Origin: Bacteroidales bacterium
GTDB lineage: Bacteria > Bacteroidota > Bacteroidia > Bacteroidales > VadinHA17
Assembly: GCA_030692905.1 (NCBI GenBank)
Contig: JAUYBT010000030.1
Span: 1 to 37,529, forward strand
DNA length: 37,529 bases
Reading direction: 5' to 3'
The translations under genes were made by a program, and so were the position numbers. The stretch's first letter is position 1. Each line of letters begins with the position of its first letter. Shown here piece after piece: positions 25,525 to 30,731 of the stretch. Under the pieces are notes generated by a model. The model ran no database searches and was not told where the DNA came from. It saw only the letters and a list, made by a program, of their open reading frames with translations.

Positions 25525-25614
25525 GGGGATTACATGCGGTGATCCCTTGTGGGGGTTCCTTGCAAAGCCAAATTACTCCCTTATTCGTTTCACTCGTATT
25601 GTCTTTTTCTTTTC
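25525..25614. repeat. tRNA-linked direct repeat, distal copy
   Basis: 83/90 nt identical (counted by hand) to 30476-30565; GGGAGAAATGGGGATT (25516-25531) matches the tRNA-Ser 3' end at 13/16. Confidence 0.92.
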
Positions 25615-27224: not shown

Positions 27225-29810
27225 ATGAAAACCCGTATTATCTTCACTGCCGTCGTATTGGTTATCCTTTCCTTAACCTGCCTCGCACAGGCCCCTGCAG
27301 GCAGAAAAATTCTGCTTAAAGATAACTGGGCAATACAGTCTTCCAATGAAATCAAGCCAGACGGTAAAGCCATTTCAAATACCGGCTTCAATACCAATGG
27401 ATGGTATCCCACTTCTGTGCCTGCAACTGTTCTTGCTGCATTAGTTGCCAACAAGGTTTACCCCGATCCCTATTTTGGAACCAACATCAAAAACCTTCCC
27501 GGTACAACCCCCGAGCGGAACAGAGACATGCCCGATGGCAGTCCGTTTAAGGTTGCCTGGTGGTACCGTACCGAGTTCAAACTCCCTGCCGATTATAAAG
27601 GAATGCACACCTGGCTGCAGTTTCACAGCATCAACTACAAAGCAAATATCTGGCTGAACGGCAAGCTTATTGCCGATACAACCACTATTGAAGGTGCGTA
27701 TCGTCTCTTTAACCTCGATATTTCAAAAGAAGCCTTACCAGGCGATAACAATTGCCTGGCCCTGGAGATATTTCCTCCAAAGGGAATGGACCTTACCATC
27801 ACCTGGGTTGACTGGAACCCCACCCCGCCCGACCGGGGCATGGGTATATGGTACGACGTGTCCGTTCATGCAACCGGTGCAGTGGCAATTGAAAACCCCC
27901 ATGTGGTAACAAAGCTGAACCTGCCGTCAACCGACCAGGCCAGACTCACGGTCACGGCAGAACTGCGGAATGCAGAGAAGAAACCGGTAACAGGAATGCT
28001 GAAAGGGACCATTGAAAATATTACTTTCTCGCAAGAAGTAAAGCTGGGAGCCGGGGAAACAAAGCTGGTGAGTTTTCTGCCTGAGACATTTCCCCAACTG
28101 GTGATGGCTAATCCGCGCCTCTGGTGGCCGCATACAGTAGGTCCCCAAAACCTTTATGACCTGAACCTTAGTTTTGAGGCCTCAGGCAGTACAACGGACA
28201 CCAAAAAAGTGCGCTTTGGCATTCGCGAGATCACCGCATGGATGAACAATTTCGACAAACTTCATACAAAAGTTTTCCAGGTGAATGGTAAGAACATCGT
28301 TATCAGGGGCGGCGGCTATGTGCAAGACCTGATGCTGCGGCCATCCAATGAACGGACAGACGCAGACCTGTTGTATGCAAAGCACATGAACCTGAATACC
28401 CTGAGGATGGAAGCTCCGCGGGGCTCTGATTATTTGTTTGAAAGGTGCGATGAAGAAGGCATTTTGCTCATGGTGGGCTGGTGCTGCTGCAGTGCATGGG
28501 AACGCTGGAAAAACTGGACACCGCACACAGGTGATGTGGCCGAATTGAGCTGGAAAGACCAGATTGTCCATCTGCGCAATCATCCTTCGGTTTTTACCTG
28601 GCTATACGGAAGTGATAATTTCCCACCCCCTGATGTTGAAAAGAGATACATCAAAGTATTGGATGAATATGACAACACCCGGCCTTATGAATCTTCAGCC
28701 ACCCAGGCCCCCAGTACCATTACCGGCTTGACCGGTGTGTGGATGGGTCCCTATCCAAAGGTGTATGCTTATTTCCCACCTTCCTACTGGTATACGAAAC
28801 TGGAGTTCAATACGGAAGCCGGTCCCACAGGCGAACAATTGCCGCCAATCGAGACAATGAGGCGGATGATGCCCGAAAAGGACTTGTGGCCCATGAGTGA
28901 ATCATGGGATCTGCGCCTGCATAAAGCATTTTATCCGATTGCAAGGGCAGCTCTTGAATCACGCTATGGTAAACCAACCGGCGTGGAAGAGTATTGCATG
29001 AAGTCGCAGGTGTTTCAGAATGAGGCTGTAAAGGCCATGTTCGAGGCTTTTGCAGGCAATAAATACCGTTCCAGCGGCATTATTTACTGGATGTACAACT
29101 CCGCCTGGCCCAAGATGTACTGGCAATTGTACGACTATTATTTTATGCCCAACGGGGCTTTTTACGGGGCAAAGAATGCCTGCGAACCGCTGCATATCCA
29201 GTATTGCTATGATGACAATTCAATTAAAATTGTGAATTGCTTTTACAAGGATTTTAACGGATTGAAAGCATCCGTGAAAATCTTTGATTTCAATATGGCT
29301 GAAGTCTGGTCGAAAGTGGTAGATGCCGGTGTAGCTGCCGATGAGAGCAAAAAAATACTGAACCTTGAAATTCCAAAGGATATTACAAAGGTTTATTTCC
29401 TCAAGTTGGAGTTAAAAGATGCTTCAGGAAAACCGGTATCATCCAATTTTTATTGGTTAAGCTCCAATGGGGATGAGAAGGCCGATTTTACTGATCTCAG
29501 CAAGCTTCCCGTGGCGAATGTAAATGTTACTGCATCAGCAATGCAGCAGGAAGGAAATAAATGCCGGCTCACGGTTACCATTGAAAATCCGGGTACGGGA
29601 CTAGCTTTTGCTGTGAATCCAAAGATACTGAAACTGACTTCCAAGGATCCGGTACTGCCTGTGTTCTGGGAGGATAATTATATTTCGCTCCTGCCAAAGG
29701 AAAAGCGGACGCTGCAGGTTGAATTCGACGTGAAAAATCTGAATGGTGAAAAGCTTCTGCTGAAAGTTGAAGGGTGGAATGTGAATGTGGTGGAAAAGGA
29801 AATTAGGTAG
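27225..29810 (+). CDS. GH2 exo-beta-D-glucosaminidase (CsxA-like) or beta-mannosidase, secreted
   Basis: Signal peptide; WVDWNPTPPD, GWCCCSAWE, LRNHPSVFTWLYGSD (Asp instead of the usual NE acid/base), FNTEAG. Confidence 0.85.
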   Translation: MKTRIIFTAVVLVILSLTCLAQAPAGRKILLKDNWAIQSSNEIKPDGKAISNTGFNTNGWYPTSVPATVLAALVANKVYPDPYFGTNIKNLPGTTPERNRDMPDGSPFKVAWWYRTEFKLPADYKGMHTWLQFHSINYKANIWLNGKLIADTTTIEGAYRLFNLDISKEALPGDNNCLALEIFPPKGMDLTITWVDWNPTPPDRGMGIWYDVSVHATGAVAIENPHVVTKLNLPSTDQARLTVTAELRNAEKKPVTGMLKGTIENITFSQEVKLGAGETKLVSFLPETFPQLVMANPRLWWPHTVGPQNLYDLNLSFEASGSTTDTKKVRFGIREITAWMNNFDKLHTKVFQVNGKNIVIRGGGYVQDLMLRPSNERTDADLLYAKHMNLNTLRMEAPRGSDYLFERCDEEGILLMVGWCCCSAWERWKNWTPHTGDVAELSWKDQIVHLRNHPSVFTWLYGSDNFPPPDVEKRYIKVLDEYDNTRPYESSATQAPSTITGLTGVWMGPYPKVYAYFPPSYWYTKLEFNTEAGPTGEQLPPIETMRRMMPEKDLWPMSESWDLRLHKAFYPIARAALESRYGKPTGVEEYCMKSQVFQNEAVKAMFEAFAGNKYRSSGIIYWMYNSAWPKMYWQLYDYYFMPNGAFYGAKNACEPLHIQYCYDDNSIKIVNCFYKDFNGLKASVKIFDFNMAEVWSKVVDAGVAADESKKILNLEIPKDITKVYFLKLELKDASGKPVSSNFYWLSSNGDEKADFTDLSKLPVANVNVTASAMQQEGNKCRLTVTIENPGTGLAFAVNPKILKLTSKDPVLPVFWEDNYISLLPKEKRTLQVEFDVKNLNGEKLLLKVEGWNVNVVEKEIR

Positions 29811-29824
29811 GTGTTAGGGTAAGT

Positions 29825-30461
29825 GTGTGCCTTGAATGAGCCTTATCGAAAGATGAGAATCAATGCTGTAAGTAAGATGGAGGAAGGCCCTCCGCAGGTG
29901 TTGTACAGGCGAGACCTGCAAACCGTCCTACGGTGCTTCTCGGGTGACTGAGCGGTATTGAACGGTTAGGGAAAAAGTCCTGTTGGAAGGATTAGGTAAG
30001 GATAGAAAAGATGAACGAAAGTGAACCTCTGTTGAAGTGCCGTGAAAACGAACTTCCTGTCAAAACTACCGTTTACTTACGACGGAGGATAAATGTAGCG
30101 GGCACCTGTTTACTGGCTACATGGCAGGCGTCATAGAGGAAGCATGATTTCTATTCGGGCTTACTTATGGAACAAGGGAAGTCTTGCAGAGATGCAAAGG
30201 GAAAGGCACAAGCAGGGGAAACACTTGCGAGGCTGAATACTGATGATCTGCAAGATGGCGGACTACCTCGTAGTAGTGAAGAAGCTTCTGTAATGGGAGT
30301 GGAGCGAAGGGGGTAGCAGCTTAATACGTCGCTAAATGAACAACTGTATTTACAGGAGGATTTAGCCAGCGAAGTATTAACTGAAGAGCCGTATGATGGG
30401 AGACTATCACGTACGGTTCCGTGAAAGGTTTGGGGGTGAAATTCCCCCTTACCTATTCGAC
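29825..30461 (+). mobile_element. Group II intron, ORF-less (IIB-like; 3' end +/-1 nt)
   Basis: 5' GTGTG; EBS1 ACTTAC (30075-30080) complementary to exon GTAAGT (29819-29824); domain III near 30267-30313; canonical 34-nt domain V at 30386-30419; domain VI with bulged A30455 and terminal GAC. Confidence 0.95.
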
Positions 30462-30475
30462 TAATGAAAATCGGA

Positions 30476-30565
30476 GGGGATTACCTGCGGTGATCCCTTG
30501 TGGGAGTTCCTTGCAACGCCAAATTACTCCCTTACTCGTTTCACTCGTATGGACTTTTTATTTTC
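30476..30565. repeat. tRNA-linked direct repeat, proximal copy
   Basis: Partner of 25525-25614; CGGAGGGGATT (30472-30482) is a shortened copy of the tRNA-Ser 3' end. Confidence 0.92.
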
Positions 30566-30636
30566 ATAGCTTTCCCAAACTGGTTTTGGAAAGCTATGAA
30601 AATAAAAAGCCCCCGGCTTTGCCGAGGGAGTAATTT
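30521..30636. repeat. Large nested inverted repeat in the tRNA-Ser 3' trailer (also terminator-like)
   Basis: Outer AAATTACTCCCT/AGGGAGTAATTT (12 bp); inner perfect 22-bp inverted repeat at 30554-30575 and 30588-30609. Confidence 0.9.
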
Positions 30637-30642
30637 ATCTTT

Positions 30643-30731
<89 letters not shown>

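Follow-up and report, generated by a model that had tools for sequence, protein, structure and literature searches.

The window analysed here is a stretch of 37,529 nucleotides (nt) from the metagenome-assembled genome (MAG) of a Bacteroidales bacterium (assembly GCA_030692905.1, contig JAUYBT010000030.1, positions 1 to 37,529 of the forward strand; the genome is called G000 below). It carries, between a glycoside hydrolase gene and a tRNA gene, a group II intron of 637 nt whose domain IV lacks the open reading frame (ORF) for an intron-encoded protein (IEP). The element is probably a structurally intact, non-autonomous intron. Its domains II to V (D2-D5) would descend from one ancestor that lost the ORF, it would have been mobilised in trans in the past to a site that looks like the usual target of its relatives, and its domain I (D1) would have been exchanged with that of another intron.

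Anatomy and conservation of the ribozyme

The intron spans positions 29825-30461 on the plus strand, as do all its features and exon motifs described below. It starts with GUGUG (29825-29829) and ends with ..CGAC at position 30461. The original prediction, made from the letters of the window, gave the length of 637 nt correctly and set the ends too far out, at 29819 and 30462: positions 29819-29824 are the intron binding site IBS1 in the 5' exon and the 3' exon starts at position 30462. The termini fit the 5' GUGYG and 3' AY of group II introns and are aligned across the copies of the family, though two of 17 begin with UUGUG. The search with Infernal and Rfam that had been proposed gives two matches in cmscan at the curated thresholds of Rfam, one to group-II-D1D4-2 (29879-29997, 84.6 bits, E 8.1e-16) and one to Intron_gpII, the D5/D6 model RF00029 (30384-30461, 61.1 bits versus a gathering score of 40, E 8.5e-10). 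By its sequence the element is a group II intron of IIB-like architecture with the exon binding sites EBS1, EBS2 and EBS3.

All six helical domains (D1-D6) are present in the RNAalifold consensus, which provided the domain coordinates together with an alignment of 17 family copies. Domain I (29830-30177) contains the D1D4-2 match and is closest to D1 of three ORF-containing introns from metagenomes (L079, L078 and L080). Domain II (30178-30259), with the arms GTCTTGCAGA/TCTGCAAGAT, and domain III (30263-30316) are of the type found in the ORF-less lineage, the basal stem of domain III being CUACC/GGUAG where ORF-containing relatives have CUCAGC/GCUGAG. Domain IV (30317-30383) is followed by domain V (30386-30419), which lies in the Intron_gpII match and features the AGC triad (30387-30389), the GAGA tetraloop (30400-30403) and the AC bulge, and by domain VI (30423-30458) with the bulged branch-point A at 30455, the seventh base counting from the 3' end. 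The landmarks named in the original prediction (GUGUG end, D2 arms, D3, AGC and GAGA of D5, bulged A of D6) were all located in this way.

The reduction of domain IV to a closed structure of 67 nt without a reverse transcriptase (RT), also part of that prediction, is borne out by the family alignment and by the ORF list, in which no ORF within the intron exceeds 49 amino acids (aa), the longest lying in D2-D3. Its basal stem pairs 30317-30327 with 30374-30383 (helix 26 of the consensus) and shows compensatory change in four of ten pairs. When aligned with ORF-containing relatives, D4 holds no ORF, ORF start codon or recognisable ORF remnant. It does hold a D4a-like element (30340-30361) made of ACAA, a hairpin CUGU-AUUU-ACAG (30344-30355) of which three of the four pairs covary in the family, and GAGGAU. 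The same motif is located 30-45 nt 5' of the RT start codon in all nine ORF-containing relatives inspected, four close and five more diverged (RTs 50-84% identical to the G029b RT), with a variant leading part in two of them (UCAC in G025 and CAAU in L032). DIVa of group IIA introns is described as the primary IEP-binding site (PMC2882425), and by analogy the D4a-like element of the window intron is presumed to bind an IEP.

Two side observations concern this region. In Ancylomarina euxinus (G113) the D4a hairpin is followed by GGAAGA, instead of the GGAGGA of most other copies, in the ORF-less copy as well as in the ORF-containing intron resident there (L053 and L074); this single case may represent a match between parasite and helper. 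In five of the seven ORF-containing relatives with listed frames (L029, L037, L015, L078 and L079) the RT frame extends without a stop back to an ATG in domain II that lies about 80 codons 5' of the conserved MIWEAF start, and the corresponding frame of the window ends at a TAG at the 3' end of D3 (ORF 30167-30316, 49 aa). The upstream opening could be due to chance or represent an amino-terminal extension.

The alignment of the 17 copies (mean column identity 79%) yields a consensus fold of 176 pairs in 31 helices. Standard pairs occupy 97.5% of the pair cells, a figure that is favoured by the prediction of the structure from the same alignment; the stronger evidence comes from compensatory counts. 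Changes on both sides are found in 81 of the 176 pairs, against 36.4 +/- 3.6 in shuffled alignments, none of 500 shuffles reaching 81, and sliding the pair partners by 1-3 columns drops the number to 11-21. The window copy breaks a single consensus pair of the 176 and departs from the consensus at six of 407 conserved columns (those conserved at 88% or more), values among the lowest of the 17 copies, and its D6 carries a double change from G-C to A-U at pair 652/683. This substitution pattern indicates that the ribozyme structure of the ORF-less family is under selection.

The ORF-less family and the ancestry of its domains

Further ORF-less copies of about 640 nt, 17 in number, are found in other genomes, mostly of Bacteroidota. 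Contiguous copies of this length are present in three of 60 relatives searched with BLAST (G001:C53, G045:C144 and G029:C1, 83-84% identity), while other relatives code ORF-containing introns that match only 29819-30311 and 30384-30461 and leave 30312-30383, the reduced domain IV, uncovered. A 21-nt pattern of the D3/D4 junction identifies 20 loci in a collection of species-representative genomes, three of them already among the BLAST copies. Sixteen of these loci hold 17 contiguous alignments of 554-655 nt and the other four are partial, cut or mixed. According to the record titles the carriers are mostly Bacteroidales and further Bacteroidota, among them Flavobacterium, Saprospiraceae, Ferruginibacter and, as a cultured strain, Ancylomarina euxinus M1P. 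One contig each comes from MAGs labelled as Chlorobiota, Thiotrichales and delta proteobacterium; these are binned short contigs and weak evidence for spread across phyla. ORF-less copies of different genomes are 72-86% identical in D1-D3. G115 has three matches of ORF-less length and four of the ORF type within 150 kb, and G116 two and one, respectively. In A. euxinus the element forms a separate contig of 658 nt; three contig starts match its 3' end and there are three more partial matches to its 5' part. The matches in the plasmid collection are all partial and concern D1-D3 of other introns, at 65-73% identity. The presence of copies at different sites and of empty sites suggests past mobility of the family. 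As a side observation, L051, from the MAG labelled delta proteobacterium, has two partial copies about 770 nt apart that match D2-D3 and D3-D6 segments (71-81% identity) and may be a shorter or rearranged derivative.

The autonomous relatives (L029 and L037 of G029:C1, L028 of G001:C3, and the metagenome introns L078-L080) have the same EBS1 hairpin and D4a motif as the window intron and are 88-91% identical to it in D5/D6. They differ by compensatory changes in the D2 stem, the D3 and D4 basal stems and one D5 pair, and by a D4 that contains the RT/maturase ORF absent from the window intron. Their IEP of 402 aa has only the RVT_1 and GIIM domains of Pfam and no endonuclease domain; the best plasmid matches of their RT are from Neochlamydia (51%) and Sinorhizobium garamanticum (ltrA, 46.5% over the full length). 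RmInt1 is linked to class D. RmInt1-like introns (bacterial class D / IIB3) resemble the present group in combining an IEP without endonuclease domain and an IIB-like RNA with EBS1, EBS2 and EBS3. Class D is reported to occur in Bacteroidetes and Chlorobi (PMC3552965).

The domains of the window intron have different closest relatives. In 60-column windows it is 93-98% identical to the ORF-containing L079 across most of D1, and in D2 and D3 its identity is higher with other ORF-less copies (0.83-0.90 versus 0.71-0.79). The tree of D2-D3 (143 columns) splits 18 ORF-less copies from nine ORF-containing introns with an ultrafast bootstrap (UFBoot) support of 99. The D1 tree (336 columns) pairs the window with ORF-containing L079, L056 with L054 of the same genome (support 97), and L048b, L048c and L049 with ORF-containing L048a (support 100), of which L048a, L048b and L048c are from one genome. 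Monophyly of the ORF-less copies forced on D1 costs 146 log-likelihood units (delta lnL; p-value of the approximately unbiased test, p-AU, 1e-7), and the D1 groups forced on D2-D3 cost 115 (p-AU 4e-57). Note that this conflict is clear only after the two partitions are split and the three metagenome introns added: the concatenated D1-D3 tree without the latter does not settle ORF-less monophyly (delta lnL 1.03, p-AU 0.50).

The significant incongruence between D1 and D2-D3 points to an exchange of modules. In the simplest reading, a single ancestral loss of the ORF would define the D2-D5 module, and D1 would later have been exchanged repeatedly with co-resident autonomous introns. A wider proposal is put forward tentatively, namely that a long-lived non-autonomous D2-D5 lineage with the D4 of 67 nt may spread among Bacteroidota, swap in the D1 of its helpers and keep D4a, behaving as a modular parasite of autonomous introns.

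Exon recognition and the insertion site

EBS1 (ACUUAC, 30075-30080) lies in a hairpin loop and forms six of six Watson-Crick pairs with IBS1 (GUAAGU, 29819-29824), the six bases that close the 5' exon, exactly as had been read from the sequence by eye. Across copies this pairing follows the exon of each intron: 69 of 90 positions are paired when EBS1 is compared, in fixed columns, with the last six exon bases of its own copy (15 copies), versus 54.5 +/- 3.4 when the exons are shuffled among copies, and none of 20000 shuffles reaches 69. Two copies are penalised in this comparison through a shift of one column. Fixed columns replaced a search with free position over a 21-nt region, whose control was poor (means of 5.2 for own and 4.5 for cross pairing).

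The internal loop GUGAAAACGAAC (30043-30055), unpaired in the consensus structure, probably carries EBS2 (AACG, 30047-30050). Opposite to it, the probable IBS2 (UGUU, 29812-29815, exon positions -13 to -10) can form four pairs, one of them G-U, which made the doubt about EBS2-IBS2 in the original prediction a fair one. CGUU is found at the IBS2 position, about -14 to -10, in 12 of the 16 copies that have a 5' exon. L048b, L048c and L049 have, by an insertion, the EBS2 loop AAACCG opposite exon CGGUUU, so that EBS2 and IBS2 change together. EBS3 is assigned to G30136 in the internal loop CAUA-N-AGG, complementary to the first 3' exon base. A scan of all intron columns against this exon base ranks position 30136 best, with three states, Watson-Crick pairs in 13 of 17 copies and one G-U pair, the one that the window forms with its IBS3 (U30462). 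EBS1 and EBS3, and probably EBS2, thereby appear to covary with the exons of each copy.

The site lies downstream of a gene coding a glycoside hydrolase of family 2 (GH2; 27225-29810, plus strand, 861 aa in the ORF list), similar to exo-beta-D-glucosaminidases and with the Pfam domains Glyco_hydro_2, Glyco_hydro_2_N2, Ig_GlcNase and Mannosidase_ig. The intron begins 14 nt after its stop codon (TAG, 29808-29810), in the same orientation. The convergent neighbour on the minus strand is a tRNA-Ser(GGA) gene (30643-30731) with a terminator hairpin at 30610-30628. Two genomes of the same genus, G078 and G090 (flanks about 81% identical), have the GH2 stop, the terminator hairpin and the tRNA-Ser gene without the intron, which suggests that the intron was gained at this locus. 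The closest relative, G096, is 90% identical upstream, shares TAGGTGTT and diverges right after GTGTT into another downstream context; owing to this divergence at the site, the exact sequence before insertion is not reconstructable.

A repeated element of about 340-490 nt, ending with ..CCGGGCCGTTAG, precedes most copies of the family, ORF-less and ORF-containing; a short spacer and then IBS1 follow its end. The exact 24-nt EBS1 hairpin of the window is present in three metagenome contigs, all with ORF-containing introns (L078-L080, one cut at the contig end), whose identities with the window over D1-D3 are 91, 87 and 88%. The 5' exons of the three read ..CGTTAG-CG-GTAAGG, ..CGTTAT-AT-GTAAGG and ..CGTTAG-CT-GTAAGG. 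The site of the window, GTGTTAG-G-GTAAGT, resembles this target and is outside any such repeat. A look-alike site of this kind is consistent with EBS1 and EBS2 having directed an ectopic insertion.

Several repeats were observed around these introns. The element ending with ..CCGGGCCGTTAG forms the 5' flank of L014, L029 and L037 (G029:C1), and also of L028, L012 and L079, with the introns at its 3' end, and it recurs about 1.3 kb apart inside one locus. In the window a structured repeat of about 90 nt with two hairpins is found at 30476-30565 and 25525-25614 (92% identical). Matches to it, often reaching about 30674, occur in many genomes of the same genus, with three tandem copies in G087:C13, and it has no Rfam match. 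An intron position inside this repeat was considered and ruled out: other copies of the repeat begin at positions equivalent to 30474-30477 or later, 13-16 nt past the intron. Between the repeat and the tRNA-Ser terminator lies a near-perfect palindromic hairpin of 62 nt (30551-30612), whose only matches are to models of miRNA precursors, by shape and far below thresholds. Together the intron, the repeat and the hairpin bring the intergenic region to about 830 nt, versus about 55 nt in G078.

Mobilisation in trans and rival readings

The following course of events is proposed for the window intron. It would be transcribed within the 3' untranslated region (UTR) of the GH2 gene, fold and leave as a lariat by self-excision, assisted by any compatible maturase in the cell. 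Historically, it would have formed a ribonucleoprotein (RNP) in trans with the IEP of a related ORF-containing intron. This RNP would have reverse-spliced into DNA at a site like the usual target of the family and been copied into DNA. The target-recognition module D1 would have been swapped, by DNA recombination or template switching, for its counterpart in an ORF-containing intron that belongs to the same specificity group. The streamlined non-autonomous retroelement of the original prediction agrees with the siblings at other sites, the exon-tracking EBS motifs, the empty locus and the retention of D4a, and from these we infer the step in which an IEP acted in trans.

Relatives G001, G029, G115 and G116 hold both ORF-less and ORF-containing forms, and co-residence with a close helper appears to be frequent and not universal in these mostly incomplete assemblies. 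Among ten other carrier genomes, the best matches to the G029b RT are 84, 62, 57, 52, 50, 36 and 29% identical, those of 84 and 50% having an internal stop, and the remaining three, in a set composed mostly of MAGs, have no match to this RT. The own genome of the window (258 contigs, 88% complete) codes RVT_1 once, on contig C63, in an ORF that runs off the contig and has 46% identity to the RT of the nearest ORF-containing relatives (G029b RT); tblastn with the RT of the relatives finds nothing but C63, so that no close helper RT is assembled there. The intron itself is single-copy in this genome. The RNA runs listed contain only about 0.04 of the sampled words. On the side of the family, the 21-nt pattern is specific to the ORF-less D3/D4 junction, and this junction is thus common to the loci by construction, which does not apply to the rest of D4 and to D2-D3. 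On the side of the target, the covariation of EBS2 amounts to one evolutionary event only, and the four pairs of EBS2-IBS2, one being G-U, together with the wobble at IBS3 make the window site sub-optimal. Apart from the genomes with both forms, these points weigh against the proposed history.

The search for sibling copies and for an RT-encoding parent suggested in the original prediction found the former in other genomes and failed to find either in G000, where BLAST with short words gave only D5/D6-like pieces on C63, C77 and C18. Two further contigs were rejected as the parent: C166 retains a maturase remnant with D5/D6 and no more, and all that C160 has is a weak D1 where the contig ends. 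As an observation on this MAG, at least one other ORF-containing group II intron is interrupted by contig ends; pieces lie on C63 (6476-7524, minus strand), C77 (62-140) and C160 (6471-6588), with a 3' fragment carrying the maturase remnant on C166 (1666-2090). The D5/D6 of this other intron are 86-89% identical to those of the window.

The same findings may be read as those of a stranded relic, an intron that arrived by retromobility or with transferred DNA, has no compatible IEP in its host, neither moves nor splices efficiently and decays in the 3' UTR. Its single copy in G000, the closest RT being just 46% identical, the weak IBS2 and IBS3 pairing and a position outside coding sequence, where failure to splice would be cheap, speak for it. 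Such a relic is nonetheless unlikely: there is hardly any decay, with one broken pair out of 176, six departures at 407 conserved columns and, in D6, a double change that preserves pairing, and a helper may be unassembled in a genome that is 88% complete and breaks at its other group II introns (ends of C63, C77 and C160).

A self-sufficient ribozyme kept for a host function independent of an IEP, for instance the processing or stability of the GH2 mRNA at its 3' end, is considerably less plausible. It would account for the sense orientation 14 nt past the stop codon and ahead of the next hairpins, for the conserved structure and for the occurrence of the same junction in contigs of a second study (X6 record 17, which spans the 5' junction). 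The locus is, however, empty in two relatives of the same genus, the siblings reside at unrelated sites, mostly in the repeated element, and the retention of D4a and of EBS motifs that track the exons fits a mobile element better. The stand-alone ribozyme that the original prediction offered as an alternative may still apply to this copy, but nothing points to a function beyond self-excision.

The assembly was also checked for a collapse of the ORF, which had been named as a possible pitfall. Groundwater metagenome runs of several studies hold the stretch. Among Logan contigs of runs other than the likely source, X4 record 10 spans 29597-30371 without differences, and X6 record 21 (30282-30452) and X9 record 29 (30282-30431) have one difference each. 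This evidence comes from contigs rather than reads and documents presence only: no contig of four runs joins 29824 to 30462, and contigs cannot show the absence of an empty site. That a full-length intron had its ORF collapsed out of the assembly, as the breakage of other group II introns of the MAG at contig ends might suggest, can practically be dismissed, given that contigs of other runs, those of another study included, bridge D3-D4-D5 with 0-1 differences and that the same mini-D4 recurs in 17 further copies from other assemblies.

The preferred reading of a non-autonomous intron served by the IEPs of its relatives has precedents: bacterial group II introns that lack the ORF are established, as is their mobilisation in trans (PMC2882425, PMC4424553). 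In the account of Mohr et al. 2010 (PMC2882425), IEPs of relatives mobilise in trans the ORF-less TeI3 introns of Thermosynechococcus elongatus, whose copies, like those of the window family, display one common D4 deletion architecture with DIVa kept. As described there, TeI3 proliferated in a single genome, its IEPs have an endonuclease domain and ORF remnants persist at the deletion break-points, whereas the window family extends over many genomes, its related IEPs are devoid of that domain and no remnant is recognisable. Exchange of D1 with ORF-containing introns is a further difference from TeI3 as presented in that source, and mobilisation in trans, demonstrated for TeI3, would be the more conjectural step for the window family. 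In the overview of Zimmerly and Semper 2015 (PMC4424553), ORF-less introns are rare in bacteria, normally occur alongside ORF-containing relatives, whose IEP may act on them in trans, and are suggested to yield derivatives that do not persist long. The window family is of the same type and departs from this picture by its divergence, its 20 loci found with one 21-nt pattern and several carriers without a close IEP. No ORF-less group II family of Bacteroidetes is described in the titles and abstract openings surveyed. The features that set the window family apart from known ORF-less introns are the breadth and divergence of the family, the full loss of ORF remnants and the exchange of D1.

For the window itself the consequence is modest, that of a selfish element in a 3' UTR. 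The best-studied ORF-less case is, in the description given by PMC2882425, a burst within one cyanobacterial genome. The window element reveals a diverged ORF-less family in many Bacteroidota assemblies, with retargeted recognition sites and a statistically supported exchange of D1, and the cultured carrier Ancylomarina euxinus M1P makes this family testable. If its members are mobilised by diverged helpers, they would provide a natural model for a shared splicing and mobility apparatus that serves many protein-less introns, and for how compact ribozymes of about 640 nt stay functional.

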